Position numbers and translations under genes: made by a program | The notes under the pieces: model-generated | The model's input: the letters and a program-made list of their open reading frames with translations, nothing else | Told to the model about the DNA's origin: nothing | Database searches by the model: none | Shown here: piece after piece, positions 9,572 to 31,942 of the stretch | How positions within the stretch are numbered: the first letter of the stretch is position 1 | Layout of the letters: every line of letters begins with the position of its first letter | Assembly (NCBI RefSeq): GCF_018398935.1 | Contig: NZ_CP074694.1 | Coordinates: 3,870,001 to 3,902,000, forward strand | Source of the DNA: Telmatocola sphagniphila | GTDB taxonomy: Bacteria; Planctomycetota; Planctomycetia; Gemmatales; Gemmataceae | Length of the DNA: 32,000 nt | Direction: 5' to 3'

Positions 9572-9619
9572 CAGAAGTACTCCTTTTAGCAAGAATTAAT
9601 TTTCGAATTAGATTGTAGC

Positions 9620-10483: not shown

Positions 10484-10645
10484 CTGATTCGATCCTCTAT
10501 TTGATTGACGAAAATTATGCCTGAATTTTCAAACTTTGTTGCATTTTTCGGAGTCTGCAATTGCTGGAACTTTTCCTCATCGCATAATAGCCACTCTGGG
10601 TAGGACTTTTTGCTTACGCCGCCGATAGATCCCTCAGGGCCCGCG

Positions 10646-13729: not shown

Positions 13730-13731
13730 TC

Positions 13732-16515: not shown

Positions 16516-16522
16516 GGGCAAC

Positions 16523-16586
16523 TTTATACCAAATTATTGCCATTTATAGCAAAAATCAGATATAAATAGATATAAACGGATATAAA
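16523..16586. promoter_or_regulatory. Helically phased TATAAA/TTTATA repeat array directly upstream of the AAA+ ATPase gene
   Basis: GATATAAA occurs three times at exactly 10-bp spacing (16559-16566, 16569-16576, 16579-16586), ending 6 nt before ATG 16593. Two inverted copies (TTTATA) lie at 16523-16528 and 16543-16548, 20 bp apart. All of this sits inside the 77-bp mod-ATPase gap. Confidence 0.5.
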
Positions 16587-16592
16587 GCCACA

Positions 16593-17780
16593 ATGGACGC
16601 ACTCAAAAACCCCTTTTCTCCTGGTGCCGGATCCCCGCCTCCGGAGTTGGTAGGTCGGGATCCTATTCTAAAGGAAGCAAGAATTTTATTAGGACGGGTG
16701 AAGCAAAAAAAACCTGAAAAAAGCTTACTTTTGACCGGTCTTCGCGGCGTAGGTAAGACAGTCCTGCTGAACGAGATCGAACGAGATGCGAAGGAAGAGG
16801 GCTATCTGACGATCAATATTGAGGCGCATGAAGATAAAGCGTTAGGGCCTCTGATCGCACCTTACTTAAGAAGTTTGCTCTTCGAATTAAATAGAATGGC
16901 GGGGGCCATTGAGAAAGTTAAGCGTGCCTTCGCAGTGTTAAGCAGCTTCGTAAAAAGCCTGAAGGTCAAGATGGGGGACTTTTCATTAGGGCTAGATATA
17001 GAACCTGAAAAAGGCACTGCTGACAGTGGGGATTTGGAGCTGGATCTACCAAGTCTATTCGTGGCGGTCGGGGAAGCGGCAGAGGACCGCAAAAAAGCGG
17101 TCGCGATATTCGTTGATGAAGTACAATATTTTAGTTCCAAAGAACTTGGTGCATTGATAATGGCAATGCACAAGGTTCAACAGCTTCAGCTTCCTTTGGT
17201 ACTTGTAGGGGCTGGCCTCCCAATTTTACCCGGACTCGCCGGAGAATCCAAATCGTATGCTGAGAGGCTTTTCAGCTTTCCAGAGATCGGGGCACTCTCC
17301 AAAGAAGATTCAGCAAAAGCACTCCGAGATCCAGCTAAAGCTTCTGGAGTGATCATTGAGCCAAGTGCGCTTGAGAAAGTTTTTCTTCTAACGAAAGGTT
17401 ATCCTTATTTCGTACAAGAATGGGGCTATCAAGTATGGAATCTTGCTGAATCCAGTCCTATCGGCGTTCGAGTGGTTCAGAAAGCAACTGAGCTGGTAAT
17501 CCCTCGTTTGGATAAGAATTTTTTTCGTGTTCGATACGATCGATTGACACCGAGTGAAAAAAATTTTCTGAGAGCTATGGCGAGCTTGGGAAATAATTCT
17601 CAAAGAATTGGCGATATCGCGGACAAACTCCAAGTGAAAGTAACGAGCCTAAGCCCCGTTAGGGCTAAGCTGATCCACAAAGGAATGATCTATAGCCCAG
17701 CTCATGGAGAAATGGCTTTTACGGTTCCCCTTTTTGATGAATTTATGATCCGATCTATTCCGGTATTAAAATCTAAATAG
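16593..17780 (+). CDS. ORC/Cdc6-like AAA+ ATPase (ATPase_2/AAA_16 type) with C-terminal winged helix
   Basis: ELVGRD...LLLTGLRGVGKTVLL carries the Walker A at 16737-16760. AIFVDEVQYF is the Walker B. The C-terminal LTPSEKNFLRAMASLGNNSQRIGDIADKLQVKVTSLSPVRAKLIHKGMIY is wHTH-like. Confidence 0.85.
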   Translation: MDALKNPFSPGAGSPPPELVGRDPILKEARILLGRVKQKKPEKSLLLTGLRGVGKTVLLNEIERDAKEEGYLTINIEAHEDKALGPLIAPYLRSLLFELNRMAGAIEKVKRAFAVLSSFVKSLKVKMGDFSLGLDIEPEKGTADSGDLELDLPSLFVAVGEAAEDRKKAVAIFVDEVQYFSSKELGALIMAMHKVQQLQLPLVLVGAGLPILPGLAGESKSYAERLFSFPEIGALSKEDSAKALRDPAKASGVIIEPSALEKVFLLTKGYPYFVQEWGYQVWNLAESSPIGVRVVQKATELVIPRLDKNFFRVRYDRLTPSEKNFLRAMASLGNNSQRIGDIADKLQVKVTSLSPVRAKLIHKGMIYSPAHGEMAFTVPLFDEFMIRSIPVLKSK

Positions 17781-17790
17781 CGAGATCATT

Positions 17791-19869
17791 ATGGAATTTC
17801 GGATCGCCGACACATTTTCCAATAGCCTAGCCAAACTCACGGGTGAGGAGCAAAAGGCGGTCAAAACTACCGCCTTCGATCTTCAACTGAATCCCTCCAA
17901 TCCCGGGATGTCATTTCACAAATTGGACCGGGCTAAAGATAAAAACTTCTGGTCTGTACGCGTCAACAAAGACATACGCGTAATTGTTCACAAAACAACC
18001 GGCAGTTTGCTCCTTTGCTATGTCGATCATCACGATAAAGCTTACGACTGGGCCTCCCGAAGGAAGCTGGAAACGCATCCCAAGACCGGGGCCGCCCAAC
18101 TCGTTGAGATTCGCGAGACCGTTCAGGAAATACGCATTCCGAGTTATGTCCAGGAGCCCAAATCCAAGGCGAAATCCAGTAAGAAATCCCTTTTCGATCA
18201 GCTTCCCGATGAGGAGTTACTCGGATTTGGAGTTCCCCAGGAATGGCTAGCCGATGTCAAATCGGCCACGGAAGACAACTATCTCGCGGTTGCCGACCAT
18301 CTTCCGGCCGAAGCCGCGGAAGCCTTGCTGGAGATTGCCACCGGCGGTAAACCGAGAATTTCGAAACCCACTCCGGCGACGGCAAATCCCTTCGAGCATC
18401 CGGATGCCCTCCGACGCTTCCGCGTCATGGGCAATGTCGCAGAGCTGGAACGAGCGCTCGATTATCCCTGGGAGAAATGGACGGTCTTTCTGCACCCGGA
18501 GCAGAGAGAACTCGTCGAGAAGAATAATTCCGGTCCGGCAAGAGTGACCGGTTCGGCCGGAACCGGCAAAACCATTGTGGCTTTGCACAGGGCAGCACAT
18601 TTGGCCCGCACGAATCCCACTAGCCGGGTGTTGTTAGCGACTTTTTCCAATGCTCTGGCGCATGCCCTTCAAACTAAGTTGCGTCGATTGCTAGGTAATG
18701 AACCCCGCCTGGGAGATCGTATCGATGTCTATTCGCTGGAGGCACTCGGCTTGCGACTCCACGAACTGCATCTCGGCAAAGCCAAGCTGGCGAGCCGAAG
18801 CGAAGTCGTTGAACTGATGAAACGTGCATCGCAGGAAGCCGATAAACATAAGTTCAATATGCAGTTCTTGCTGTCGGAATGGGATCAGGTGGTGGATGCC
18901 CGACAGGTGAATAGTTGGGAAGCTTACAGAGACGTGACGCGACTGGGCCGCAAGACTCGCTTGAATGAAGCACAGCGCCAGCTGCTTTGGTCGATTTTTC
19001 AAAAAGTCATCGAAGCTTTGAGTCGCCAGAAGTTGACGACTAGCGCGGGAATCTTCACTCGACTTGCAGATGCGATCGCCAAAGTTCCGAACAAACCGTT
19101 CGATTTCGCCGTGATTGACGAGGCCCAGGATCTCACCGAATCGCAGATTCGATTCTTTGCGGCCCTGGCCGGCAATAAGCCGAACGGACTGTTCTTCGCC
19201 GGAGATAGTGGACAGCGGATCTTTCAACTGCCGTTCTCCTGGCAAAAATTGGGAGTTGATATTCGAGGTCGCTCCAAGAATTTGCGAATCAATTACCGCA
19301 CCTCCCACCAGATCCGGAGCCAGGCCGATCGTTTGCTGGAAGTCGAAGTTCGGGATGTCGACGGAAATGTCGAGCAAAGAAACGACACCATTTCCGTGTT
19401 CAATGGACCTCCGCCGGCGATCAAAACTGCAGCGGATGAAAAAGAGGAAATCAAGATTGTCGGGAGTTGGCTATCGGAGTTAATCGCGACGGGAATTCAA
19501 CCCCATGAATGCGGCGTGTTCGTTCGATCTCCTGAACAGATTGATCGGGCAAAAAATGCAGTCCAACATGCCAAGTTAACGGTAAAAATTCTCGATGAGA
19601 ATGTGGAAACGGTAGCCGGCCAGGTTTCGATCTGCACGATGCATCTGGCTAAGGGTTTGGAGTTCCGGGCCGTAGCGGTTATGGCCTGTGATGATGAGGT
19701 GATTCCGCTGCAGTCTCGAATCGAAGCAGTTGGTGAGGATTCCGATCTGAAGGAAGTCTATGAGACGGAACGACAACTCTTGTACGTGGCGTGCACCCGA
19801 GCTCGAGACTCCTTGTTGATTACGGGAGTGGATCCCGCTTCCGAGTATCTGGATGATATGAAACAGTGA
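17791..19869 (+). CDS. UvrD/Rep-type SF1 helicase with N-terminal RelE/ParE-fold-like domain
   Basis: The start is 10 nt after the ATPase stop. Helicase motifs are GSAGTGKT (18550-18573), FAVIDEAQDL, NYRTSHQI, TMHLAKGLEFRAV and LLYVACTRARDSL. N-terminal aa 1-~95 (FSNSLAKLTGEEQKAV...LNPSNPG...FWSVRVNKDIRVIVHKTTGSLLLCYVDHHDKAY) follow the RelE/ParE toxin pattern. Confidence 0.9.
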   Translation: MEFRIADTFSNSLAKLTGEEQKAVKTTAFDLQLNPSNPGMSFHKLDRAKDKNFWSVRVNKDIRVIVHKTTGSLLLCYVDHHDKAYDWASRRKLETHPKTGAAQLVEIRETVQEIRIPSYVQEPKSKAKSSKKSLFDQLPDEELLGFGVPQEWLADVKSATEDNYLAVADHLPAEAAEALLEIATGGKPRISKPTPATANPFEHPDALRRFRVMGNVAELERALDYPWEKWTVFLHPEQRELVEKNNSGPARVTGSAGTGKTIVALHRAAHLARTNPTSRVLLATFSNALAHALQTKLRRLLGNEPRLGDRIDVYSLEALGLRLHELHLGKAKLASRSEVVELMKRASQEADKHKFNMQFLLSEWDQVVDARQVNSWEAYRDVTRLGRKTRLNEAQRQLLWSIFQKVIEALSRQKLTTSAGIFTRLADAIAKVPNKPFDFAVIDEAQDLTESQIRFFAALAGNKPNGLFFAGDSGQRIFQLPFSWQKLGVDIRGRSKNLRINYRTSHQIRSQADRLLEVEVRDVDGNVEQRNDTISVFNGPPPAIKTAADEKEEIKIVGSWLSELIATGIQPHECGVFVRSPEQIDRAKNAVQHAKLTVKILDENVETVAGQVSICTMHLAKGLEFRAVAVMACDDEVIPLQSRIEAVGEDSDLKEVYETERQLLYVACTRARDSLLITGVDPASEYLDDMKQ

Positions 19870-19953
19870 AAGCCGACTTGAAGATTTCGGAAATGATCGA
19901 TCCGCATAATGACCGACTCTTTCGGCTTTAAACCGTCGCCGCAGGAACATGTC

Positions 19954-20685
19954 ATGCGAATCGCCACTTACAATCTGCTCAAAGGAGGCACAAAACGGAC
20001 TCATTGGAAAGAGATGATCGAAAGTCATCTTGTCGATCTTCTACTTACACAGGAATCCGCCAGGCCTGATCTGCACCTTACGCCGGATATGTTCCCTGAC
20101 TTTCAGAAGCAATTCGTCTGGGAGATGTCTGAAAACAAAGGCTGGGGAAGTGCGATATTCTCTCGGGATGGAAGGCTGGAAGCCATACAGGTGCCAGGCT
20201 TCTCGGGCTGGGCGGTCGGGGCGAAAATCACGAATGCTACGTGGCAGCGGGATTTATGCGAATCGATCTTTGTGTTTAGCCTGCATGCTCCAGAGCTAAT
20301 GGGCGGGTATGCAAAGGCCGTGAACAAATTTCTGGATGAAGTGAAAATGATCGCCGGTCAGAATGAGGTCATCATCGGAGGCGATTTCAACCTGACTGTA
20401 AGCCGTTGGTTGAGTCCGGAAAAAAAGATCAGCAAACATGATCTGGCTATCCAAGCCCGACTTGCCGATGAATTTGCATTGATGAACTGCTGGCAGGAGG
20501 CGAATCCCGGCCAGGAGCTCCATCAGACACTTCGTTGGACAAACAACCGGGAAACGGTTTACCACTGTGACGGGATCTTCGTTCCGAAAAGCTGGAAGTC
20601 TCGGCTGCAATCTTGCAGAGTGCTTTCGGGAGAAGAATGGGATCGACTAAGTGATCACAACCCGGTGGTGGCAACGTTTGGGTAA
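19954..20685 (+). CDS. Endonuclease/exonuclease/phosphatase (EEP) family protein
   Basis: The ORF starts MRIATYNLLKGG and contains IIGGDFN and LSDHNPVVATF (~20649-20675). ATG 19954 is preferred because EEP proteins usually start at this strand. ATG 19909 is an in-frame alternative. Confidence 0.85.
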   Translation: MRIATYNLLKGGTKRTHWKEMIESHLVDLLLTQESARPDLHLTPDMFPDFQKQFVWEMSENKGWGSAIFSRDGRLEAIQVPGFSGWAVGAKITNATWQRDLCESIFVFSLHAPELMGGYAKAVNKFLDEVKMIAGQNEVIIGGDFNLTVSRWLSPEKKISKHDLAIQARLADEFALMNCWQEANPGQELHQTLRWTNNRETVYHCDGIFVPKSWKSRLQSCRVLSGEEWDRLSDHNPVVATFG

Positions 20686-20810: not shown

Positions 20811-22163
20811 TTAATTTGTTGCCTGGATTCTCAGCCACTCCCTAGCCACTTTGATCGCCTCGCGCCGCTGCATTGCTTCGGTCAATTGTTCCCGAATCGT
20901 GCCGGCCTGGGTATGCGTATACACAGCCGTCATCCCTAATCCGTGACTCGAATTGCGATCTGAAGAGATCGAGTGCCCCATTAAGAGATTTCGGATGATC
21001 GGATCCACGCGGCCTTCCTGCAGGGTAGTGGCGAACATATGACGAAGAACTTTCGGTGCGGACTGGTGACTGAGGCCTATGGCCTGTGTCACATGCGTGA
21101 ATTCAATACGCAGTCGATCTTCCTGAAGGGCCCCCATCTCGTTCCAGAGTGCTCGAGCGATTCTGAGCTTTTCTATTCTTTCCAAGGCCCTTTTAGCTCG
21201 CAGCTCTTCTCGCACCATTCGTAGGTTTAGTTCCCTTTCGATCATCGCTTGGGAAGCGGTAACCAAGTTCCTCGGCCCTGAATTCCAAGTGCTTCGCCGG
21301 AACAGGGGACCTGAAGGGTAGCGGGAAACATGCAATTTCAGCACTTCCACTAATTCCGGAACCAGTGGGATATCGCGTTCGTTCCTTGTCTTGATCTGCC
21401 AACCGAGCCGCGGCTTATTTCGAATTCTCAAGCTGCCTTTTTCGAGATCGATATCTTCCGGAACCAAGAGGTGGCACATCTCTCCTGGTCGCATACCCGT
21501 GAGCATAAGAGTCAGAAAAATCGGAAATTGCCATTCGTCGCACTGCTGCAAAAAGACTCGCTCTTCTTCCGGTTTGAATAATTCAATCGGTCGGAATTCT
21601 TCGATAGGAATTCGATCGATATTGAGCACTTGAAACGGATTTTCTGCATAGGGGCTCAAATAGCGTCGTTTTTTGGCGTAGCTAAAAAGAGTTCGGCAGG
21701 TTTCCAGGACGTAAATCAAACCGCCGTCCAGAAGTGGACGCTTGATCGTCCGTTCATGTCCATTCGGTGAGACGCGGATGGAACGTAGATAGGCGACGAA
21801 TTCCGCAGCGTGAGATGGAGTAAATTGGGCGATCGTCCTCACCGGTTTTAGGTCGAGGAATCTCAGCAAATGATCCGTTGCAGTGCGGTAACGATGGATC
21901 GTATTGATCGAGGATCGGGAAACCTGTTCGTGATGTTCGAGCCATTGCTGTCTGGCTTTTTCGATCGTGATACTTTCGAAGCTCAACGCGGCGGGTGCTC
22001 CGACATCCAACTGCGAGTTGATTTGCGAAGCGAGTTGGCGGGCGGCATTCCGGTCGGGACCTACCCGAGGGCGGTGCCGTCGCCCTTGTTCGTTGTAACA
22101 GAGATACCAAATTTTGCCGCGACGATACCCTCGAACTTTACCAATGCGGAACTCATTCGACAT
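20811..22163 (-). CDS. int: Tyrosine recombinase / phage-type integrase
   Basis: The N-terminal SAM-like region is followed by a catalytic domain: LTGMRPGEMCHL (Arg), VLRHMFATTL (H-x-x-R), LMGHS and GMTAVYTHT (Tyr). ATG 22163 (MSNEFRIGKVRGYRRGKIWYL) has GAGG 5 nt upstream. The listed 22214 start adds an implausible MWQFLWHF leader. Confidence 0.9.
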   Translation of the reverse strand: MSNEFRIGKVRGYRRGKIWYLCYNEQGRRHRPRVGPDRNAARQLASQINSQLDVGAPAALSFESITIEKARQQWLEHHEQVSRSSINTIHRYRTATDHLLRFLDLKPVRTIAQFTPSHAAEFVAYLRSIRVSPNGHERTIKRPLLDGGLIYVLETCRTLFSYAKKRRYLSPYAENPFQVLNIDRIPIEEFRPIELFKPEEERVFLQQCDEWQFPIFLTLMLTGMRPGEMCHLLVPEDIDLEKGSLRIRNKPRLGWQIKTRNERDIPLVPELVEVLKLHVSRYPSGPLFRRSTWNSGPRNLVTASQAMIERELNLRMVREELRAKRALERIEKLRIARALWNEMGALQEDRLRIEFTHVTQAIGLSHQSAPKVLRHMFATTLQEGRVDPIIRNLLMGHSISSDRNSSHGLGMTAVYTHTQAGTIREQLTEAMQRREAIKVAREWLRIQATN

Positions 22164-22221
22164 GCGTGCCTCAGAGATTTCTCCCGCCACAAAATGCCAC
22201 AAAAACTGCCACAAACGGGAT

Positions 22222-22272: not shown

Positions 22273-22443
22273 CAACCAAAGAAATGAAAAAACGGAGAGG
22301 GGGGGATTCCATTTTGGCGTCTCTCTAACTCCCTGTCATTTCGGTACTTGTGGCGATAAAGCTATATGCGACTTGTAGTTGCAGGATGTCAGGAATAGTC
22401 AGCGATACTCAGGGATTCTCACGATTTTCAGCCTGATTGGCAC

Positions 22444-22466
22444 ACTGTGCCAATCATTTTTCGCTG
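22444..22466. promoter_or_regulatory. 23-bp perfect palindrome (candidate operator or recombinase binding site)
   Basis: The sequence is TGATTGGCACA-C-TGTGCCAATCA, with 11-bp arms and no mismatch. It ends 27 nt upstream of the likely serine-recombinase ATG at 22493. Confidence 0.5.
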
Positions 22467-22492
22467 CAATCTCCCTTGTGGAGTTGTTGCTC

Positions 22493-24430
22493 ATGAGTTT
22501 CCATAGATCGTCGATTCCATTGACACCAAGACGAGGTACCGTCTTGAAGGTGCTGGCCATCACTCGGATCAGTACCGAACACCAGGACGTTCGTAGCCTG
22601 GATGAACAAGCCCTACTCATCAGACAGTTCATGGAGCGTTCCTACTCGGGTCCCTTCAACTTAGAAGAGATACGCTCTCAGGGAAGTGGCGAACGACTGG
22701 ATAGAGCTGAATTTCTCGAAGCTCAAGAAAGAGTAAGGAGCAGACAATTTGATGTGGTTTGTTCCGAAGACCTCGCACGAATCTGCCGGCGTGCAGATGC
22801 CTTCCGGTTTGCCGAATTGTGCGAGGATTTTGGTGTCCGGCTCATAACCATAAACGATCGCCTGGACACGGCAACAGATGGCTGGCGAGACAGTGCCTTT
22901 CTGTCGACTTGGCACCACGAACGAAGCAATCTCGAAACATCCCAACGCATAAAGCGTACTTTACGGGGCAGATTTCAGACAGGTGGCGTTGTTCCGTGCC
23001 TCATCGCCGGATATCGTCGCGTGCCGGGTGTCGAGGGTGAAGCTGGCCTACAAAAAATAGCGGAATGGGAGCCTATTTATGATCAATGGTTTCGGATTTT
23101 GGAAGAAGGGGGCAGTTTTGCGGAAGTCGCTGACTGGTTGAATGAACGTCATATATCAGTCGGACCCGCATCCCGGGGAACTAGCTGGACCGGGACGATG
23201 GTGGGGAGAATAACCAGAAACCCTTTATTGAAAGGCATCCGGCAACGAAATGTCCGAGAGAGCCGTCGCATTAATTCAACGGGCCAGCATCGAAGTGTCC
23301 GTGCTGATCCCTCGCAGTTGCTGGTACGGAATTGCCCTCATCTAGTGTTCATCGCCCCAGATCGTTTTGATCGCTTGATGAGGCGAATCGACGAAATTAA
23401 TGCAATGTATCGGCGTCAGGGCACCGATGGTCGTGATTCTCGTGAGGGGTTACCGCGTTCAAGGACACCCTGGCCAGCTCAACATGCAAAATGTGGAATC
23501 TGCGGGCGAATCCTCTATAGAACTCAAAGTAAATCGATTCCCATGCTGCAGTGCTCCGGCGCTCAAGCCTACAAATGCTGGAACGCTGTCACTGTAAACG
23601 CGAATGTTGCCGCCCGAAAAATTCTGGAAGCCATTCTCCGAAAACTTCGAGAACTTCCTGAATTCGACTCGCTACTTCTTCAAAATATTCGGCAACAGCT
23701 TCAGGCCAGCTCTGAGGCGGATCATTCGCGCGTTCCCACTCTGGTTTCTGAAATCGAAGACCTGCGACGGCGAATGCGCAATCTTTCACTGGAAGTTGCC
23801 GAGAACGGTGGGAATGAGACCTATCGGGCGACGCTCAGAGAATTACAAGGGATACTCGACCTAAAAACCGAGGAGCTTAGTCACCGTTCAGCACCCCCGC
23901 GGGAAGTTTTGTTCCCTACTTTAAGGTCGCTGGAACATCATTTGCAGAATCTTCTAGCTGACCCGGAACTTGATGACCCCGAGTTAGCCCGAATTCTTCA
24001 CCGGTTCGTTAACAGATTGGAATTCTATCCTATTCAAGCTTGTAATGGTGGCGCGATAGAGTTACGAGCGCATCTTGAGATTCGATTGGATCAGTTGCAG
24101 CTCGATTCGGATCTGCATCAACTGCCCGCAGAAATTACCACGCACTCAATGGAAGTAGATCTGTTCGATTACCCGGCTCAAATCCGAATTCGATCTGAGG
24201 CTTTGCGCTTGACAGCGGAACGATGGAAGCAAAGAGATATAGCCAGGCATCTGGGTACTCACCAAGCCACAGTGCAACGGGCAATCAGCTTGGAGAGAGC
24301 CATGCAAAATCTGGGATTATCCGATCCCTATATTCGATTAACGCAAGCCCCACAAAACGACAGCAAGATAAGGCGGCACTTGCATCCGAGATATTCGTTT
24401 GAACCACTTGCAGAACGCACTGCGGCCTAG
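22493..24430 (+). CDS. Large serine recombinase
   Basis: The resolvase-type catalytic N-domain is VLAITRISTEHQDVRSLDEQ (Ser nucleophile in RIS). A recombinase domain and a zinc ribbon (CGICGRILYRT...LQCSG...YKCWN) follow, then a coiled-coil region. ATG 22493 is preferred; the listed 22379 start would run through the palindrome. Confidence 0.9.
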   Translation: MSFHRSSIPLTPRRGTVLKVLAITRISTEHQDVRSLDEQALLIRQFMERSYSGPFNLEEIRSQGSGERLDRAEFLEAQERVRSRQFDVVCSEDLARICRRADAFRFAELCEDFGVRLITINDRLDTATDGWRDSAFLSTWHHERSNLETSQRIKRTLRGRFQTGGVVPCLIAGYRRVPGVEGEAGLQKIAEWEPIYDQWFRILEEGGSFAEVADWLNERHISVGPASRGTSWTGTMVGRITRNPLLKGIRQRNVRESRRINSTGQHRSVRADPSQLLVRNCPHLVFIAPDRFDRLMRRIDEINAMYRRQGTDGRDSREGLPRSRTPWPAQHAKCGICGRILYRTQSKSIPMLQCSGAQAYKCWNAVTVNANVAARKILEAILRKLRELPEFDSLLLQNIRQQLQASSEADHSRVPTLVSEIEDLRRRMRNLSLEVAENGGNETYRATLRELQGILDLKTEELSHRSAPPREVLFPTLRSLEHHLQNLLADPELDDPELARILHRFVNRLEFYPIQACNGGAIELRAHLEIRLDQLQLDSDLHQLPAEITTHSMEVDLFDYPAQIRIRSEALRLTAERWKQRDIARHLGTHQATVQRAISLERAMQNLGLSDPYIRLTQAPQNDSKIRRHLHPRYSFEPLAERTAA

Positions 24431-24459
24431 TCCGTAGAACTTTACATCTCATAATTCGT

Positions 24460-24497
24460 TGGCTGGCTATTCGGAAGAATGGCCAGCCATTTTTTTT
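24460..24497 (+). terminator. Rho-independent terminator after the serine recombinase gene
   Basis: tggctggc (24460-24467) pairs with gccagcca (24482-24489). Three further pairs extend the stem, leaving the 8-nt loop tcggaaga. A T8 run follows at 24490-24497. Confidence 0.7.
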
Positions 24498-24503
24498 GGA
24501 GAA

Positions 24504-24707
24504 ATGATGAAGAAAAGAAAATTGACTTCAATCAATACGGAACGTGAGACTCCCACTCACCAGCTATTGAAGTGGCTTGCTAAACATATTGCCCTTCGAA
24601 TTCAAGAAGAACGGCCTATTTTTCCGTCTGTTTCAGATTCGAGCAAATCCAACCCATCGGATGATCCGAAGCCAAGACCCCTCCAAGAAAGTAAGTCCGA
24701 AGAATAA
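24504..24707 (+). CDS. Small hypothetical protein (67 aa)
   Basis: GGAGAA at 24498-24503 directly precedes ATG 24504 (MMKKRKLTSINTERE...). The listed start at 24459 lies inside the terminator hairpin. No recognisable domain. Confidence 0.35.
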   Translation: MMKKRKLTSINTERETPTHQLLKWLAKHIALRIQEERPIFPSVSDSSKSNPSDDPKPRPLQESKSEE

Positions 24708-24901
24708 GCTTCTCATCGACCGTTATAATTTTATTTGACTAAATTTCCGCCTTTTTTGCGTCAATATAGATGAGTGAGTAATAGTGTTTTTTGGGTAGCT
24801 ATTACCGCTTTCTGCATTCACTTTCGCCCGAAGTAACCATTCTTTTTTTCCTTGTTCCCGCCGCCGCAACCCGGCGGTGGTTTCGTTTCTGGAGATTTCT
24901 C

Positions 24902-25183
24902 ATGCTGATTCCGATGACCGTTCCTGTTTCTATTCCCGTGCTGTCGCTCGAAGATCGCCAGCAGGCGTTTGTGACTATCCTGCCCCTGCTGGAGACGAAG
25001 GCCCGCTTCGCTTTTCGCGATCTGGCCTCTCGGCACGATCGCGAAGATGCGGTGGCCGAAGTGGTCGCCCTGGCCTGGGAGCATTTCAGGTACTCCCGGC
25101 CCCTGCCCGCCTCACTCTTCATTAAGCAGATTCCGCTGCTCATCGCCACCGTCCGGCAACAGTTGAACAATCGCCCGGTTTAA
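24902..25183 (+). CDS. Small protein with sigma-70 region-2-like segment (93 aa)
   Basis: The protein starts at ATG 24902 (MLIPMTVPVS...). The segment RHDREDAVAEVVALAWEHF resembles the ECF sigma region 2 pattern (AEDxxQExFLxAW). The listed 24791 start adds a hydrophobic, Arg/Trp-rich leader that looks spurious. Confidence 0.4.
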   Translation: MLIPMTVPVSIPVLSLEDRQQAFVTILPLLETKARFAFRDLASRHDREDAVAEVVALAWEHFRYSRPLPASLFIKQIPLLIATVRQQLNNRPV

Positions 25184-25215: not shown

Positions 25216-25410
25216 ATGTCGCGACGTGTTTTGCTCGAAGAGTTTCATCTGTCGTTTCTGATTCTCGCCGATACGGCCGAGGCCGAAGTGCAACGAATCC
25301 GCCATCAGCTGAATCGCACCCGCTTTCAAGCTCTGCTCCGAAGAACCCTGCTCCATTTCTTCCGGAAATACCGGGCTCTCGACTCGGTCGTTTTCAAACT
25401 GTCCCGGTAG
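25216..25410 (+). CDS. Small Arg-rich hypothetical protein (64 aa)
   Basis: The ORF fits cleanly into a co-directional array, 32 nt after the previous stop. No recognisable motif. Confidence 0.35.
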   Translation: MSRRVLLEEFHLSFLILADTAEAEVQRIRHQLNRTRFQALLRRTLLHFFRKYRALDSVVFKLSR

Positions 25411-25482: not shown

Positions 25483-26613
25483 ATGAAAACCCTCGTTCCC
25501 GACTGCGCGGCCCTGCAGGCCCATTTCGCTTTGCTCCGTTCCGAACTGGCTTCCGGCCTGATCGAACGCGACGAAGAGATCGATCTCTGCCTCACCGCTC
25601 TGATCGCCCAAGAGCATCTGCTCTTGGTCTCGCCTCCGGGCTGTGCCAAATCGCTGCTGCTCGATTCCCTCCTGAAAGCCACCGGCGGCTCCAAGTTCTC
25701 GATCCTGCTCACCAAGTTCACCGTCCCCGAAGAGGTCTTTGGCCCTATCTCGATTCAGGGGCTCAAGGAAGACCGCTTCCAGAGGATCACCACCGCTAAA
25801 CTGCCCGAAGCCGACTTCGCGTTCGTCGATGAAGTCTTCAAAGCTTCTTCAGCGATCCTGAATACCTTGTTGAAGATTCTCAATGAACGAACCTTCGATG
25901 CCGGCGAAGGTTCCTTGCGCAAAGTCCCCCTGAAGCTCTGCGTGGCGGCATCCAATGAATGGCCGGCCCCGGAGAGCGCTCAGGAACTGGCGGCCCTGTT
26001 CGATCGCTTCACTCTGCGCAAGAGTTTATCCCCGATTCGCTCGCAGTCGGGTCGGAAGAAATTGCTCTGGAATCGGGATCATACCCCGAAGATCTCGGTG
26101 CACCTGAAGCCGACCGATCTCGAAGCGGCCCGCCGCTATGCCCGGGAGTTACCCTGGTCGATCACGGCCCAGGAAGCTTTTGAGACGATTCTCAAAGATC
26201 TGGCCAAGGAAGGCGTTCAACCGGGGGATCGCCGCCAATTCAAAGCGGTCGGCATCGTCCAGGCTTATGCCTTCCTGCAAGGGGCTGAGCAGGTCGAACC
26301 GGAGCATCTGGAAGTGGCCGCCCATGTACTCTGGGACGATCCCCGGGAACAGCCCCAGAAGGTCGCCCAGGTGATTGCCCGAATCGCCAACCCCATCGGC
26401 ATGCGGCTGAATCAGCTGCTTTTGGAAGTGGAACAGGTTCTGTCGACGACCGATGTCCGCAAGCTGCCCGAGACCGCCAAGGCGGCAGCCAAGCTCGGCG
26501 AAATCGACAAGCAACTCAGTGATTTAAAGTCCAGTGATCGGGTCACCCGGACCCGGAACTACGTGCGCGAACAGCTCCGTCAACTCAAACTCGCCTCCTT
26601 GGAGGCGATCTAA
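25483..26613 (+). CDS. RavA-like MoxR-family AAA+ ATPase
   Basis: AGGAG lies 7 nt before ATG 25483. The Walker A is LLVSPPGCAKS (25630-25653). KFTVPEEVFGPISIQGLKEDRF, FAFVDEVFKASSAILNTLLKILNERTF and LCVAASNEWP are colinear with E. coli RavA as I remember it ([60 protein letters not shown]). Confidence 0.9.
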   Translation: MKTLVPDCAALQAHFALLRSELASGLIERDEEIDLCLTALIAQEHLLLVSPPGCAKSLLLDSLLKATGGSKFSILLTKFTVPEEVFGPISIQGLKEDRFQRITTAKLPEADFAFVDEVFKASSAILNTLLKILNERTFDAGEGSLRKVPLKLCVAASNEWPAPESAQELAALFDRFTLRKSLSPIRSQSGRKKLLWNRDHTPKISVHLKPTDLEAARRYARELPWSITAQEAFETILKDLAKEGVQPGDRRQFKAVGIVQAYAFLQGAEQVEPEHLEVAAHVLWDDPREQPQKVAQVIARIANPIGMRLNQLLLEVEQVLSTTDVRKLPETAKAAAKLGEIDKQLSDLKSSDRVTRTRNYVREQLRQLKLASLEAI

Positions 26614-26629
26614 CCCCAGGGAAAAAACC

Positions 26630-28006
26630 ATGAATGCCGAAGAACTCCGTAAACTCTTCGATCTCGATCGCCCGCTCTCGCCCAGTCCCTCCTCCGCCGA
26701 AGACTCTACAACCTCCCCTTTTTCTTCCCCTTCGCCTTCAACAACTCCATCTGGGAATCCAACGGCCCTGCAGGTCGATTCCTGGGGGCTGCGTCGGGGC
26801 GACGATCTGCTGCGGGATTCTCCGCGTTTGCAATCGTTCGCTTTGGACGAGTATGCCATCGCCGATTTTCATACGGCGGCTTTTGAACCGGAACCGCAGC
26901 TGCTGGACGATTGCCAGGACCCGGCCCGCCGGGCCTTCCTGGTCGAGCTGTTCCAGACTCCGGAGTATCAGGCGTTGCATGCCGGGACTCGACTGGATGA
27001 GGTCTCCTCCGAGATTACCACCCTGCACTTCGCCGAACAGTTCGCTGCTCTGCGGAATGCCTCTGCCACGGCCGAACCTGAGATCGCCACATTAAAAGCG
27101 GTCAGCCGGGCGGTGCTGGCCGCTCGCGAAGAGGTCGACCAGTGCCGGGAAGCGATTACTGCTCTCGGCGGCGGGCTCGGTCCGGGAACGCCGGGCTCGG
27201 TCGATCCTAAAGCGATCGCTCAACTGTTCCAGCGGGTCCGCCAGGACCCGACGTTGCGACGGATCTGCGAACTGGCCGGACGGTATCGGCGATTGGCCCA
27301 GTCGAGCCAGCGTCGCAAATGCGCCCATGGTCAGGACGATCTGGTCGGAGTGACTACCTCGGGAGATCTGGCCCAACTGCTGCCGCACGAGTTGGTCCGC
27401 TTGGGAATTCCCGAACTGGAACTGGATACCCTGCGGCGTCTGGCCGAACGGCAGTGCCTGGCTCGGGACTACCAGTCTCTGGAACCGGTGGGCAAAGGTC
27501 CGATCGTGGTGGTCATCGATGAATCGGGCTCGATGGCTGGGGATAAAGTGCAAACAGCCAAGGCTCTGGCCTTGGCCTTGGCCTGGATCGCCCGGCAGCA
27601 GCGTCGCTGGTGTGGCCTGATTGCCTACTCGGGTGACACCGGCGAACGGCTCTTGTCTTTGCCGCCGACTCGCTGGGAAGAATCGGAAGTGCTGGACTGG
27701 CTGGGAGCTTTCCTGGGGGGCGGTTCGACCTTGGATGTTCCGATTGTGGAACTGCCCTGGATGGTGGAACAGCTCTGGGCCCCGCCGGGGATTACCGATG
27801 TCTTGATCCTGACCGATGCCATCTGCTCGATTCCGCCGGAGTTGCAGCAGAATTTCCTGGCCTGGAAGAGCTTGGTTTCGGCGCGGGTGATCTCGTTGGT
27901 CTTAGCCGATACAGCAGGAGACCTCGCGACGTTGTGCGATGAAGTCCATCTGGTCCAATCGCTCGAAGTCACCGAGACCGCCCTCGGTTCCGTGCTGTCG
28001 ATCTAG
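26630..28006 (+). CDS. ViaA-like VWA-domain protein (MoxR partner)
   Basis: ATG 26630 lies 16 nt after the ATPase stop; the listed 26534 start overlaps that gene. The MIDAS motif VVVIDESGSMAG is at 27518-27535. LLPHELVRLGIPELELDTLRRLAERQCL is colinear with remembered E. coli ViaA [28 protein letters not shown]. A P/S-rich tract lies near the N-terminus. Confidence 0.85.
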   Translation: MNAEELRKLFDLDRPLSPSPSSAEDSTTSPFSSPSPSTTPSGNPTALQVDSWGLRRGDDLLRDSPRLQSFALDEYAIADFHTAAFEPEPQLLDDCQDPARRAFLVELFQTPEYQALHAGTRLDEVSSEITTLHFAEQFAALRNASATAEPEIATLKAVSRAVLAAREEVDQCREAITALGGGLGPGTPGSVDPKAIAQLFQRVRQDPTLRRICELAGRYRRLAQSSQRRKCAHGQDDLVGVTTSGDLAQLLPHELVRLGIPELELDTLRRLAERQCLARDYQSLEPVGKGPIVVVIDESGSMAGDKVQTAKALALALAWIARQQRRWCGLIAYSGDTGERLLSLPPTRWEESEVLDWLGAFLGGGSTLDVPIVELPWMVEQLWAPPGITDVLILTDAICSIPPELQQNFLAWKSLVSARVISLVLADTAGDLATLCDEVHLVQSLEVTETALGSVLSI

Positions 28007-28029
28007 TCTCCCTTTTTTCCATCGTGGTG

Positions 28030-28074
28030 AAAGCTCGCAGATCTTCTTATTCAGAAGGTTCCGCGAGCTTTTTT
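28030..28074 (+). terminator. Rho-independent terminator-like structure after the VWA gene
   Basis: aaagctcgc (28030-28038) pairs with gcgagcttt (28063-28071). An inner stem cttct/agaag sits within the loop. A T6 run lies at 28069-28074. Confidence 0.6.
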
Positions 28075-28115
28075 CATTTCTGTTTTTATCCTTCTTGAAC
28101 TGAAAGGAACTCTCT

Positions 28116-28994
28116 ATGAGTGCATTTATCAAAACCAACCACTTGCCTAAGGTGACCCCAGGTGCTCGCCTATTGGGTGAGATCATCACCTGGACCGCTT
28201 CGGGAGCCAGCGTCCGACACAGCGATTTGATCCGGGCGCTGAAAGAAGTCGGCTTGGATGAAAGCGTGGCCCGGGAGTTAGCACCCCGGCACGCCTTTGC
28301 CCGGGCCTGTCGCAAGCTGTCGGAAGCTCGGATCATCCGACAGATCGCCGAAGATGAAGTCTCGATTCAATTCCAGTTCACCCAGGAATCGAAACAGGGG
28401 GACCGCTTCAGCTACGACTTCGAAACCCTGCTCACTCTGACCAAGAAAACCGGGCAGGTGCACTGCGATAAAGGAGAATTAGCTCTATTGGCTCAGGAAG
28501 AACTGGATCGCTGCATCGCCGTGCGGACCGGCAGCGACATCACCCGGATCGTGCAGAAGCTCTTCGAACGGGAAGCCGATCTTTTCCCGATTCGGCCGCA
28601 AGGCGGCGCTTACTTCGTGCCGCAGCTGCACGCCGGCTTCATCGATCGGGTGCAGAGCTTGTTGAAGCAACTCAATGGTCAGATGCTGCGCTTCCCGGTG
28701 CCGGAAGGAACCGCGAGTGGAGACGTCTCGGTGAAGGAAGCGGTGGCTGCGGGGCTATCGGCTCTGATTGCCGAGCATGAGGAAGCGATCGATTCGTTCG
28801 GTGAAGACACCCGGCCCGATACGGTGGAACGGGCCGCCGAGCGGATTCGCAACACCAAGTTCAAAGTCGAAGCCTACGCCGCTCTCTTGGCCGACCAGAA
28901 GCATCAGCTGGAGCTTTCCCTGGCCACGGCTTCCCGAAAGCTCCGTCAGAAAGTCGAAAGTCTGGCTGCTGAGCGGGAAGCGGTGCTGGTCTAG
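28116..28994 (+). CDS. Hypothetical protein, 292 aa; possible N-terminal wHTH and C-terminal coiled coil
   Basis: Clean ORF with AAAGGAA upstream. N-part: SVRHSDLIRALKEVGLDESVARELAPRHAFARACRKL. Middle: IRPQGGAYFVP. The C-terminal ~60 aa are helical and heptad-like (KFKVEAYAALLADQKHQLELSLATASRKLRQKVESLAAE). Family not recognised. Confidence 0.7.
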   Translation: MSAFIKTNHLPKVTPGARLLGEIITWTASGASVRHSDLIRALKEVGLDESVARELAPRHAFARACRKLSEARIIRQIAEDEVSIQFQFTQESKQGDRFSYDFETLLTLTKKTGQVHCDKGELALLAQEELDRCIAVRTGSDITRIVQKLFEREADLFPIRPQGGAYFVPQLHAGFIDRVQSLLKQLNGQMLRFPVPEGTASGDVSVKEAVAAGLSALIAEHEEAIDSFGEDTRPDTVERAAERIRNTKFKVEAYAALLADQKHQLELSLATASRKLRQKVESLAAEREAVLV

Positions 28995-29090
28995 TTCGGT
29001 CCACCTCTCATTCGATTCGCAGTTTTGCTTTTTAGCTCTTCGCCCGCCTTCTCGCCCTTTCATTCCAACACGATTTACCGGGAGAAAACC

Positions 29091-30425
29091 ATGATTCATT
29101 TGCAGCGTCGGCAAGTCCGGCAGTTACGCAGCTTGTTCAAAAAATTGGGTGCAGCCCGCTGCCCAGCTCCGACTAGCCTCTTGCTGAAGACTGATTCATC
29201 CGGGCTCTCGATTCAGGGCTCGATTGGCGAAGTCACGGCGATTTACCGGCTGCCGGGCTCCTTTGCCGAGGAGCAGATGACCATTCCTTTTGCCGTTTTC
29301 AATGATACCGCCGGTTCGGACGACAGCATTGTCGAGATTGTCGCCCTGGTCCATCAGAAGTTGCGCGTCGCCTGGAGTTCGGGTTCGATGCCGCAGGTTC
29401 GGGAGTACGAGATTCCCTCCAGTGTCGAAAGCCTGCTTTTACCGGAGGTCTGGACACCGATGGATCTCCGACTTCGGGACGCTCTCGCCGAAGCGATGCG
29501 ATCGGCAGCGGCTGAAGCCACTCGCTACGCGGTGAACTATGTGCAGTTACGGGGGAGAACCGGCGAAGTCATCGGTACCGATACCCGGCAGCTCTTCATC
29601 GAATCAGGATTTCCGTTCCCCTGGGAAGATGATCTGTTGATACCGCGCTGTGGACTCCTCGGAGCTGAGGAACTAAAAGGCGATTCTTTGGAGATCGGCC
29701 GAACCGCCTCGCATCTGTGGTTACGACTGGGAGCCTGGTCGATCGCCCTGCAAACCGCCCAGGAGAAAAGTTATCCGGATGTTTATCGGGCGATCCCCAA
29801 TCAGACCGACGCCACGCTTTGGAAAGTCGACGGCCAGGAGGCTGGGGCTTTGCTGAATTGCCTGAAAGAGATGCCGGGCGAAAAGGATCCGCATCGGCCG
29901 GTAACGCTGGATCTCAATGGACACGTCGCTCTGCGTTCGCGAGGAACCGAAAGCACTCAACCGATGGAAGTGCACCTGAGACAGTCGCGGGTCGAAGGTA
30001 GTCCGATAAAGCTTGCTTTGGATCGAGGTCACCTGCGACGGGCTCTGAGTCTCGGGCTTACCGAGTTCCAGATTGCCCATCCCGATAAGCCAATTCTCTG
30101 CACAGACGGACCGCGCCGCTATGTCTGTATGCCCCTGGGTAAAGCCTCGGTGATTGCGGCTTCCCCAGAAGCCGTGCAGGTAGAGTTGGGGGAGACTGCG
30201 ATTCCCGGTTCGAGAAACGCGAGATCCGAAGCTGCTATTCCGGTAAGGATCCGGAAGGCCACCTCACCAGTTCTAACTGGCCTGGTTTCGGAAGCGGCGG
30301 CAATCCGGTCAAGCCTTCAAGATCTACTCGAGCGACTGAGATCTTTCAGTCAACAGTTCCAGCGCTTGCTTCCTGAACAGCACAAATGGCAGGAATGTTT
30401 GAAGAATCTGCCTCAAGCGAGCTAG
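29091..30425 (+). CDS. Highly divergent DnaN-like sliding clamp (three-domain beta-clamp fold) with ~75-aa C-terminal extension
   Basis: GGGAGA lies 5 nt before ATG 29091. The protein is colinear with remembered E. coli DnaN along its whole length. [26 protein letters not shown] (29523-29600) matches [41 protein letters not shown] matches [28 protein letters not shown]...RRYVCMPL matches IGFNVSYVLDVLNAL...AAYVVMPMRL. Confidence 0.8.
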   Translation: [444 protein letters not shown]

Positions 30426-30492
30426 CAAATTTGCGCAGTGCGTAGTTCCCAAATTCTGAATTTAAATCTCAACTCTTTCGGAGAAAATAGAC

Positions 30493-30648
30493 ATGGGTGC
30501 TAAACAAAAATTGAATGCGGCTCATCTGACGGGCACAGCTTTGGTGGCCATTCTAATCGGGGTGATCTTCCATTCAACAGCGATTGCCTTGGGAGCGTTC
30601 GCGTTTTTGCTCGTTGTGGATTACGTTTCGGGGAATATTCGACGGTAG
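30493..30648 (+). CDS. Small two-TM membrane protein (51 aa), not in ORF track
   Basis: GGAG at 30480-30483 lies 9 nt before ATG 30493. The product is MGAKQKLNAAHLTGTALVAILIGVIFHSTAIALGAFAFLLVVDYVSGNIRR, with two hydrophobic segments. It is followed by a 10-bp-stem hairpin. Confidence 0.45.
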   Translation: MGAKQKLNAAHLTGTALVAILIGVIFHSTAIALGAFAFLLVVDYVSGNIRR

Positions 30649-30656
30649 TCTTTGCA

Positions 30657-30690
30657 TCTCCCGATCGTAACTTCGCTTATGATCGGGAGA
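30657..30690 (+). terminator. Perfect 10-bp-stem hairpin after the last gene of the module (terminator-like, no T tail)
   Basis: tctcccgatc (30657-30666) pairs with gatcgggaga (30681-30690) around a 14-nt loop. No U-tract follows, so intrinsic-terminator status is uncertain. Confidence 0.4.
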
Positions 30691-30982
30691 GTTGAATTAA
30701 TTCTGGAGTTACCAAGCGAGCTTCTCTTTAGCTATCGGCGGCCTTCAGCAAAATGGATTGTCCATCAGGGAGAGCTTTAACACGGTAAAGGCGCGTTTAT
30801 ATTGGTGGTTCGTGTGAGTTCAAATCGAAATAAATCTTCAGGATCATAGGTCGTTTTTTTGCAAATTCGGGTAGCGGAAATAGACGAGAAATCTTTATGG
30901 AAATGCGGTTTGTTTCAGGATAAGATCAGTTCTGTAATACCTCTCTTCCTCAATCTTCAAGGCTTAAAAAGAGATATTCGTG

Positions 30983-31942
30983 ATGTCGGAGCCTAGCCTC
31001 AAAGAACTTCCTTCAGCGAACGGTCACGTTTCGAATTTCCCGGAACTCTCCAGGGAGCTTATTCCCGCTTATTCAGAGCCAGTGCCCGCCTCGCCAAGCG
31101 AAACTCGCTATCTTCTAGTCAAAGCCCATGTTGGCTTTGGCGACCGTCTGCAGTGTCTCAGCCAAGCGATTGAGCATGCCAAAAAATACAACCGAACACT
31201 TTCCGTCGACTGGTCGGATTCGATCTGGTCTGATGGCACAGTCGATTTCGATACGTTTTTCCATATTTGCGGAGTTCAGACCGTACCTCCCGCGGAGATT
31301 TACCAGAGGAATTTTTCCACGGTAGAACCCATCGGCTGGATGAACCAGTACGATCGCAAGGCATCCTGCGATTTTATTTTTAAAACCGAGTACGAACTGA
31401 CTCTCAAGGATGAAGATCTGCCTTCGCAGCTGGTGGTTTATCCCAGCGTTGGGTTGCGAACCTATTACGTGGCCAACTTATGCATGCTCCGAGTCAAGAA
31501 GCCCTGGCGAGATAGTATCGTTCAGGAGTTAAAACGGTACTCTAAGTTCAAGACGCTGGTCCACCTGCGCGGCACGGACAAGCATGCTTCCGAAAAAATC
31601 CCGGAGTACATGGAGAAGATCAAAGCGAAGATGGCAGATATTCCAAAAACCGAACCTGTTTTGATCGTGTCCGACAGTCTGCCGCTCTACCAGGAACTTC
31701 GGGAATCTTTTCCCAATGCAGTGCTGCGAACGCCCAATTTAGATCGATTCCGAACGGATCAAGGAACGCACTTTCAGCTGCAGATCCCGAAGTCTGAGTT
31801 CAACCTGAACACTCTCATCGATTTCTTTTTAATAGCTTATTCGAGCAATTGTATCGCGGAAGGCGAATCGATGTTCTACACGATGGCGCGTTTTCTAGAT
31901 TGCGGTCCAAAGAAGGACATTCTGGGTTATGACGGGGACTGA
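30983..31942 (+). CDS. Putative glycosyltransferase, fucosyltransferase-like (GT11/GT23/NodZ-like motifs)
   Basis: 319-aa ORF. HVGFGDRLQCLSQAIEHAKKYNRTL resembles the N-terminal GxGxQ motif of bacterial fucosyltransferases. VHLRGTDK resembles the H-x-R-R/G-D donor-binding motif. The functional call is tentative. Confidence 0.55.
   Translation: MSEPSLKELPSANGHVSNFPELSRELIPAYSEPVPASPSETRYLLVKAHVGFGDRLQCLSQAIEHAKKYNRTLSVDWSDSIWSDGTVDFDTFFHICGVQTVPPAEIYQRNFSTVEPIGWMNQYDRKASCDFIFKTEYELTLKDEDLPSQLVVYPSVGLRTYYVANLCMLRVKKPWRDSIVQELKRYSKFKTLVHLRGTDKHASEKIPEYMEKIKAKMADIPKTEPVLIVSDSLPLYQELRESFPNAVLRTPNLDRFRTDQGTHFQLQIPKSEFNLNTLIDFFLIAYSSNCIAEGESMFYTMARFLDCGPKKDILGYDGD

Follow-up and report, generated by a model that had tools for sequence, protein, structure and literature searches.

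A MoxR-VWA-DUF6744 gene triad and a divergent beta sliding-clamp homologue in a syntenic module of putative integrative elements of Planctomycetota

Introduction

Pairs of MoxR-clade AAA+ ATPases and von Willebrand factor A (vWA or VWA) proteins that are accompanied by a third conserved protein have been predicted to act as conflict systems, with Planctomycetes among the hosts, with VMAP, FtsH, an inactive STAND protein or a beta-propeller/TPR protein as the third component, the beta-propeller being fused to the vWA protein, and with variable effector domains joined to the vWA protein or to the third component (Kaur, Burroughs, Iyer and Aravind 2020, PMC7159879). The AAA-vWA pairs of the haloviruses HVTV-1 and Hardycor1 lie in replication or accessory regions and are of unknown role (PMC7911831), and the MoxR-vWA pair p618/p892 of ATV is tied to tail development, according to literature that cites the work on it. 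We analyse here a 32,000-nucleotide stretch of the 6.59-Mb chromosome of the planctomycete Telmatocola sphagniphila (Gemmataceae; NZ_CP074694.1, positions 3,870,001 to 3,902,000), hereafter the window, in which a MoxR-VWA gene pair is followed by genes for a DUF6744 protein, a divergent homologue of the beta sliding clamp DnaN and a 51-amino-acid (aa) protein. We show that the four larger genes recur together in other loci, and we tentatively propose that the region is the core, conserved throughout, of one family of planctomycete integrative mobile elements.

In gene order the locus resembles E. coli RavA-ViaA, where a MoxR AAA+ gene is likewise directly followed by a gene for a VWA protein with a MIDAS (metal-ion-dependent adhesion site), and RavA and ViaA are the best NCBIfam matches of the two products. 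The initial annotation of this DNA, made from its letters alone, had called the pair RavA-ViaA-like, a likeness that holds at superfamily level but not against the full models, for which scores fall far under the equivalog cut-offs: the ATPase reaches 190 bits against a cut-off of 681 for RavA (NF010054), over model positions 7-326 of 498 only, and the VWA protein 74 bits (1.1e-20) against 500 for ViaA (NF008230), over its residues 226-383 and model positions 244-415 of 487. Furthermore, the ATPase matches RavA in the AAA+ part alone and, at 376 aa, lacks the C-terminal LARA domain of RavA, the ViaA match leaves out the first two-thirds of the VWA protein, and, unlike RavA-ViaA, the pair is trailed by a conserved DUF6744 gene and a clamp gene. 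With the ternary conflict systems the module shares a MoxR and vWA core plus a conserved third protein, and its ATPase matches PF20030 (bpMoxR), the MoxR model built from them. It departs from those systems in having DUF6744 in the third place, in a VWA protein that carries neither a beta-propeller nor an effector domain where variable effectors would be expected, in VWA and DUF6744 proteins that are highly conserved rather than variable, and in its linked beta clamp, a component of which PMC7159879 makes no mention. The archaeal-virus pairs are similarly an AAA+ and vWA-MIDAS couple encoded by a mobile element, and HVTV-1 also possesses a DUF6744-like protein; however, the gene for the latter is not adjacent to the pair, the viral AAA protein misses the MoxR profile, and the role ascribed to the ATV pair concerns the tail and not DNA.

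Results

Synteny of the module in Planctomycetota

The five genes were confirmed as plus-strand open reading frames (ORFs) at 25483-30648 of the window, co-directional and separated by short gaps as first annotated. The initial annotation had stated beforehand that a lack of synteny of the four larger genes elsewhere would refute it, and they proved to be syntenic in a DUF6744-based census of 80 metagenomic loci, with MoxR upstream of DUF6744 in 20/20 loci, VWA upstream in 47/50, and the clamp downstream in 41 of the 45 loci that have at least 1 kb of following sequence. Since it is seen again in dozens of independent loci, the gene arrangement is far beyond chance. The commonest order is MoxR, a variable gene, VWA, DUF6744, a protein of about 100 aa, a variable gene and the clamp; the window has no counterpart of the ~100-aa gene that usually precedes the clamp. 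When the long loci were clustered by family on non-overlapping ORFs, only MoxR, VWA, DUF6744, the clamp and the ~100-aa gene were common to most of them, and the flanks varied. The 51-aa protein with two hydrophobic segments, which the first annotation had counted as part of the module, belongs to a family that recurs at about 14 of 66 clamp loci, with either type of module (see below), and is an accessory partner of the clamp rather than a core component.

A first census had been based on the clamp, as a genome scan with the peptide pattern [VIA][AS]TDG[RC]QLL, and returned 40 loci, only 2 of which hold the MoxR triad. It was biased, in that the window clamp reads GTDTRQLF and falls outside the pattern, and it returned mostly another clamp clade. 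By their labels 39 of these 40 loci are from Planctomycetota, as are all named clamp-family loci apart from the remaining one, a short contig binned as an archaeon, probably wrongly.

Comparison of the eight loci in which all four genes are complete gave a mean pairwise identity of 72% for MoxR, 67% for VWA and 70% for DUF6744, against 47% for the clamp. The triad of the window is 55-64% identical to the others, whereas its clamp is just 27% identical to the main triad-linked clade and, in a neighbour-joining tree, stands near the clade that is linked to a different, Cdc48-like module. One hybrid locus (L056) combines the MoxR triad with the clamp, the ~170-aa protein and the nuclease of that other clade. 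On these two grounds we conclude that parts have been exchanged independently between elements, yet that the order of an AAA+ module followed by a clamp has been retained.

The Cdc48-like module is a second conserved planctomycete arrangement around the same clamp family (L004-L043; for instance L004 2509-9458 and L007 4402-13117). Upstream of the clamp it comprises DUF1257, DUF2997, a classic AAA ATPase and proteins of about 330, 81 and about 80 aa, and downstream a protein of about 170 aa and a PD-(D/E)XK nuclease. Its ATPase is closest to Cdc48/VCP/AFG2, and as a Cdc48/VCP-like protein it was rejected as a clamp loader. The partner proteins are not detectably related to those of the MoxR triad: hhalign detected no kinship of the ~330-aa protein with DUF6744, or of the small proteins with the ~100-aa protein. 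Of the 25 genome-set loci that extend at least 7 kb upstream, 17 have an AAA+ gene upstream of the clamp. The AAA+ remodellers to which the clamp family is linked thus come from two clades unrelated to each other, and the link is present at every triad locus suited to the comparison and at roughly two-thirds of those of the second type. We found no paper describing the Cdc48-like module. As a side observation, in two Gimesia loci from marine metagenomes (L001 5822-8333, L002 3775-6286) a group II intron reverse transcriptase/maturase directly precedes a truncated, 236-aa Cdc48-like AAA protein, which suggests that an intron has inserted into the AAA gene.

The clamp homologue and its family

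The clamp homologue, identical to KIH39_15505, matches no Pfam or NCBIfam model at E values up to 0.1 and thus none of the curated DnaN sequence models. It does match phrog_947, annotated as a DNA polymerase processivity factor, over its full length (1.9e-8), and the profile of its family retrieves solved beta clamps at 8e-8 over chain positions 24-329 of 367. The AlphaFold2 model (mean predicted local distance difference test score, pLDDT, 86) has DNA polymerase III beta clamps as its top Protein Data Bank (PDB) matches in Foldseek, with an E value of 2.5e-21, a target-normalised template modelling score of 0.72 and about 375 aligned columns, at 16-20% identity. The protein accordingly has the complete three-domain beta-clamp half-ring fold, and the structural and profile comparisons agree in this with the first annotation. 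The family retains the DnaN motifs T-D-G-[RK]-x-L and [FY]-P-D-x4-[IV]-P, which align to ATDAHRL and YPDISRIIP of a canonical plasmid DnaN. Bacterial beta clamps are head-to-tail dimeric rings around DNA that bind partners in a hydrophobic cleft, and in E. coli DnaN the T-D-G-[RK]-x-L and [FY]-P-D motifs border this cleft.

The clamps of phages and plasmids (phrog_947; the dnaN product of NZ_CP034542) are similarly three-domain beta clamps of mobile elements in which the DnaN motifs are kept. The present homologue differs from them by its identity of only 16-21% to canonical clamps, by its systematic linkage to AAA+ remodellers and by a C-terminal extension of about 80 aa, which is specific to the family and found in all its members; in the model of the window protein it consists of a linker modelled with low confidence (369-391), then a long helix (393-438). 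What had been termed an orphan clamp is in fact a member of a very large family. Clustered at 50% identity, this family numbers at least 1,437 clusters for E values up to 1e-30 and 4,435 for E values up to 1e-3. The T. sphagniphila genome alone has three clamp paralogues, 71-74% identical to each other, and several metagenome-assembled genomes carry two clamp loci. No published description of the family was found.

The MoxR-VWA pair and the DUF6744 protein

The ATPase has the features of the MoxR clade, namely an AAA_5-type core with Walker A and B motifs and an AAA lid, and matches PF20030 at 1.1e-50, PF07728 (AAA_5) at 3.4e-21 and PF17868 (AAA_lid_8) at 3.7e-8. All of the 26 homologues compared retain Walker A GK[S] and Walker B DE, and the C-terminus, ending ...QLKKLKLASIEAV, is conserved as well. 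In its partner, the Pfam match to VWA_2 is weak (20.8 bits, below the cut-off of 27), while the MIDAS residues DxSGS...T..D (DESGSM, a later T/S, and TD) are conserved in 35-37 of 37 homologues, from which the protein is predicted to carry a VWA domain with MIDAS. From the N-terminus it is organised as a conserved short motif, MDPxELLKLLDL (MNAEELRKLFDL in the window), a Pro/Ser-rich linker, a middle region to which no domain was assigned, and the C-terminal VWA domain. Pfam detected no beta-propeller, STAND or FtsH domain in the VWA or DUF6744 proteins, and none of the five proteins has an effector-type domain by Pfam, NCBIfam or PADLOC. The canonical clamp-binding consensus is QL[SD]LF/QLxLxL, and both the N-terminal motif of the VWA protein and the C-terminus of the ATPase were discarded as candidates, as they fail to fit it.

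The third gene product matches PF20529 (DUF6744) with 40.5 bits against a cut-off of 27, as do all 25 aligned homologues, and has more than 914 homologues in total; among the matches listed, identity is 61-71%, with one at 98%. In the AlphaFold2 model (pLDDT 81) the N-terminal half is alpha/beta, and three long helices make up the C-terminal part. Neither fold nor sequence comparison retrieved a significant relative from the PDB, and a Foldseek search showed the fold to be common to four tailed-virus proteins (E 5e-14 to 8e-12), one of them from the haloarchaeal virus HVTV-1. We regard DUF6744 as the third conserved subunit of the MoxR-VWA triad.

The triad outside Planctomycetota

In Bacillota, DUF6744, a bpMoxR-type ATPase and a VWA protein are also encoded together, in the order DUF6744-MoxR-VWA (L049, L050, L133, L134, L135). 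Two Brevibacillus plasmids carry the triad, in both cases with DUF6573 after the VWA gene; on one of them a canonical dnaN is situated 5.5 kb upstream of the triad, together with a DEAD helicase, DUF6094 and an SOS-response-associated peptidase, and the Brevibacillus marinus plasmid NZ_CP034542 encodes dnaN. In Paenibacillus, Bacillus and Virgibacillus the triad is found in mobile regions by a PriCT primase-type protein, RadC, GmrSD, zeta toxin or insertion sequence (IS) elements. The DUF6744-MoxR-VWA order is further seen on an 84-kb IMG/VR contig with phage-like small genes (L132), where a SNF2-family helicase with a LAGLIDADG/Hint intein (17629-20049) lies downstream of the triad among many small phage-like ORFs. 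In HVTV-1 (KC117377; L136), gene 25 (9815-10966, 383 aa), annotated as hypothetical, is DUF6744-like, with a Foldseek E value of 5.5e-14 to UniProt L7TK87 and 28 bits against the DUF6744 family profile; the AAA/vWA pair of this virus (genes 59 and 57; intervals 25607-27838 and 28126-29463) is in the replication region. The DUF6744-MoxR-VWA triad is thus the ancient cross-phylum core, and the clamp a frequent planctomycete addition to it.

Among the planctomycete loci a clamp-less variant was also noted (L046-L048, L063, L077), in which MoxR-VWA-DUF6744 and the ~100-aa protein are followed by REase-ARP (428 aa in L046), preceded except in L063 by DUF6573 and DUF6166. Large helicase or methylase genes are found upstream in L046 and L048.

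Operon layout and mobile-element context

The co-directional run spans 24.8-30.7 kb of the window (Table 1) and looks like one operon, because an RBS-like (ribosome-binding-site-like) string, GGGA[A/G]AAAACCATGA, is identical before the ATG at 26630 of the VWA gene and the ATG at 29091 of the clamp gene, and because the run is bounded by an upstream hairpin and a downstream inverted repeat, the latter probably marking the operon end. ATG 29091 is the probable start of the clamp gene, and the VWA ORF opens with a GTG at 26534, although ATG 26630 is its likely start. Guanine-plus-cytosine (GC) content is 0.56-0.63 across 25.0-30.5 kb against 0.46-0.52 on both flanks, as expected from the initial description of a GC-rich module. 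The 130-aa basic protein has no significant Pfam match, and at least 14 loci, with modules of either type, carry a member of its family upstream; it may be a regulator. The family of the 64-aa basic protein is matched in 16 related loci at varying positions. An 82-aa ORF (24459-24707) 3' of the serine recombinase gene is probably no gene, since its start overlaps the terminator-like hairpin.

Table 1. Features of the module and its immediate surroundings (window coordinates)
Feature	Coordinates	Strand	Size	Remarks
Tyrosine recombinase (phage-integrase family)	20811..22214	-		PF00589 1.3e-11 and SAM-like N-terminal domains; left edge of putative element
Large serine recombinase	22379..24430	+		Resolvase, Recombinase, Zn-ribbon and C-terminal helix-turn-helix (Pfam)
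Terminator-like hairpin	24460..24489	+	13-bp stem	T-run; closes upstream serine-recombinase gene
Small basic protein	24791..25183	+	130 aa	Isoelectric point 10.8; probably first gene of the module operon
Small basic protein	25216..25410	+	64 aa	Isoelectric point 11.6
MoxR-clade AAA+ ATPase	25483..26613	+	376 aa	PF20030, AAA_5, AAA_lid_8
VWA/MIDAS protein	26630..28006	+	458 aa from ATG	Weak VWA and partial ViaA match, MIDAS residues
DUF6744 protein	28116..28994	+	292 aa	PF20529
Divergent three-domain beta sliding-clamp homologue	29091..30425	+	444 aa	
Protein with two hydrophobic segments	30493..30648	+	51 aa	
Inverted repeat	30657..30690	+	14-nt arms, 6-nt loop	Directly 3' of the 51-aa gene; GC drops here

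In the window both recombinases are directly upstream of the module, and the attribution to a recombinase-bearing element extends to several other loci: tyrosine recombinase homologues precede the module in L093, L107 and L131, and serine recombinase homologues in L012, L089, L107, L108, L109, L121 and L131. Of the 16 loci whose sequence extends at least 8 kb upstream, 5 have a recombinase there. Further recurrent neighbours are an ExoX/RNase_T exonuclease just upstream of MoxR, a GP88 phage-family protein before the clamp, a PD-(D/E)XK nuclease after it, and DnaJ-domain proteins nearby.

Left of the recombinases, the window holds a defence-island-like run (8774-19869) composed of an HNH endonuclease (8774-9592, minus strand), an ASCH protein (9620-10483, minus strand), a 1039-aa ResIII helicase (10610-13729), a 927-aa N6/N4 DNA methylase (13732-16515), an ATPase of the AAA_16/STAND-like kind (16593-17780) and a UvrD-type helicase whose N-terminus is HigB-like (17791-19869). 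Farther left lie genes that appear unrelated to the module: one for a 917-aa fusion of a Stf0-type sulphotransferase and methyltransferase domains (1121-3874), one for another sulphotransferase (3929-4594) and one for a Ser/Thr protein kinase (6416-8089, minus strand). On the right, a 320-aa protein (30980-31942) whose match to a NodZ-type fucosyltransferase is just sub-threshold (27.8 against 28.3 bits) starts right after the GC drop and is probably outside the element.

Searches for known systems of the same composition

The first annotation knew of no MoxR-vWA conflict system with a clamp, and no system of the present composition was met with in the records and papers searched. No PADLOC-DB 2.0.0 model matches any of the five proteins at E values up to 0.1, phage records contain no match for the DUF6744 protein, and plasmid records none for the clamp. 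The literature searched makes no mention of DUF6744, DUF6573 or bpMoxR, and includes no paper that brings MoxR together with a sliding clamp in the context of mobile elements. The other finding named beforehand as a refutation, a replication cassette already known from a described plasmid or phage family, was rejected on the same phage and plasmid records and on IMG/VR, which returned 2 DUF6744 loci and 0 clamps.

Discussion

Overall, we favour a model where the module is a DNA-handling unit of integrative elements in which an AAA+ machine remodels a clamp/DUF6744 complex, a tentative reading to which we assign a rough probability of 0.4. The AAA+ ATPase, the MIDAS-bearing VWA protein as adaptor and the DUF6744 protein as third subunit or client would constitute a three-protein MoxR-vWA chaperone-type system. 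The second part would be a beta sliding clamp that is specific to the element, evolves fast and bears an additional tail at its C-terminus; this clamp may work on the element's own DNA, either in replication or in processing after excision or entry. The ATPase/VWA pair might assemble, open or remove the clamp/DUF6744 complex, with the C-terminal tail of the clamp or the N-terminal motif of the VWA protein as the most likely flexible handle. The data establish which genes are present, the folds of their products, that the ATPase and MIDAS motifs are intact, that the genes are syntenic and that they lie in a mobile-element context; every physical contact in this scheme, as well as the action on DNA and the role in replication or maintenance, we infer.

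Several lines of evidence argue for this model. They include the synteny, the recombinase context and the DNA-metabolism neighbours, the fold and motifs of the clamp and its phrog_947 match, the invariant ATPase and MIDAS residues, the presence of the triad on Brevibacillus plasmids and in mobile regions of Bacillota, and the location of the halovirus AAA-vWA pairs in replication or accessory modules. The idea of a loader or remodeller further fits the finding that two unrelated AAA+ modules precede the clamp family, and that the hybrid locus joins parts of both. An AAA+ ATPase gene beside a ring clamp recalls the DnaX complex and RFC clamp loaders, and suggests ATP-driven handling of the ring.

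A number of observations nonetheless weigh against the model. The module ATPases are not of the clamp-loader clade but MoxR and Cdc48-like proteins, normally hexameric protein remodellers, and no delta- or delta-prime-like subunits were seen. No canonical clamp-binding motif is conserved in the partner proteins, the QLELSL of the DUF6744 protein not being conserved in its family. The triad does not strictly need a clamp, since it occurs without an adjacent one in Bacillota and since in about 4 of the 45 planctomycete loci it is followed by DUF6573/DUF6166/REase-ARP in place of the clamp. The conserved genes of the module include neither an initiator nor a helicase, primase or polymerase, which weakens the case for a replication role. 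As to the element itself, no attachment-site repeats or element ends were found in the window, which has no tRNA gene or tRNA integration site, no conjugation or virion genes were seen within 10 kb of the module, and viral relatives are few, with just the 2 DUF6744-related loci in IMG/VR and none for the clamp. Finally, the flanks are often defence-like, with Type I HsdR, a helicase with a PLD nuclease, or, in the window, the run of restriction-modification-like, STAND and UvrD genes.

These defence genes lead to a different account, circumstantially supported and in our view rather unlikely, in which the module is a conflict system carried by mobile elements and directed at phage or plasmid defence or anti-defence. 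The clamp would then be a DNA-tracking sensor or a decoy of the host clamp, DUF6744 a switch, and MoxR-VWA the machine that activates or resets the complex, with the associated nucleases (ExoX-like, PD-(D/E)XK) or the small membrane protein as effectors. MoxR-vWA pairs with a third protein are, after all, predicted conflict systems (PMC7159879), and the ATPase matches their MoxR model; defence genes are frequent in the flanks, nucleases and the two-segment protein are recurrent accessories, and the Bacillota triad sits among RadC, GmrSD and zeta-toxin genes. The faster evolution of the clamp (47% identity) relative to the triad (67-72%) could reflect an arms race, but the triad itself is highly conserved rather than diversifying, and a constant module between variable flanks fits an element backbone better than cargo. 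The third component is moreover none of the four published types, the VWA protein lacks an effector or beta-propeller, and none of the five proteins matches a PADLOC model. The core has no recognisable effector domain of its own, and candidate effectors are confined to a minority of loci.

The triad and the clamp might instead be independent functional units that are neighbours merely through their adjacent slots in the backbone of a single lineage of elements, the ATPase and the clamp having no direct biochemical connection. We deem this improbable, despite the triads without an adjacent clamp in Bacillota and some planctomycete loci, the clamps without a triad in most genome-scan loci, the variable genes that separate DUF6744 from the clamp and MoxR from VWA, and the contrast in the window between clamp (27%) and triad (55-64%), which indicates that parts were swapped independently. 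Against it, the adjacency outlasts this very shuffling, as seen in 41/45 loci, in the hybrid locus and in the different clamp lineage of the window; another AAA+ module takes the upstream position where the triad is absent; and the genes are co-directional, with short gaps and an RBS-like string shared by VWA and clamp. At the other extreme, the elements could possess an orthogonal clamp that is loaded, opened or stripped by MoxR-VWA-DUF6744 or the Cdc48-like ATPase gripping its C-terminal tail, without any loader of the DnaX/RFC type, a bolder proposal, which would mean a new mode of clamp handling and which we hold to be doubtful. As a variant of it, the clamp would be a DNA-tracking sensor or decoy in a new immune or counter-immune system.

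Returning to the remodelling model, the locus extends the MoxR-vWA ternary theme by a third subunit and a very large clamp family, both of them undescribed. MoxR-vWA pairs are widespread, yet a client is known for few of them; in the present case the gene context points to DUF6744 and a sliding clamp as candidates, which makes a chaperone role directly testable. Through the DUF6744-MoxR-VWA triad the module also reaches plasmids of Bacillota and tailed viruses. Should the ATPases act on the clamp, clamps would be loaded or removed here by a route that is not the canonical one; otherwise the module is still the mark of a previously uncharted integrative-element family, in a phylum where little is known of mobile elements.

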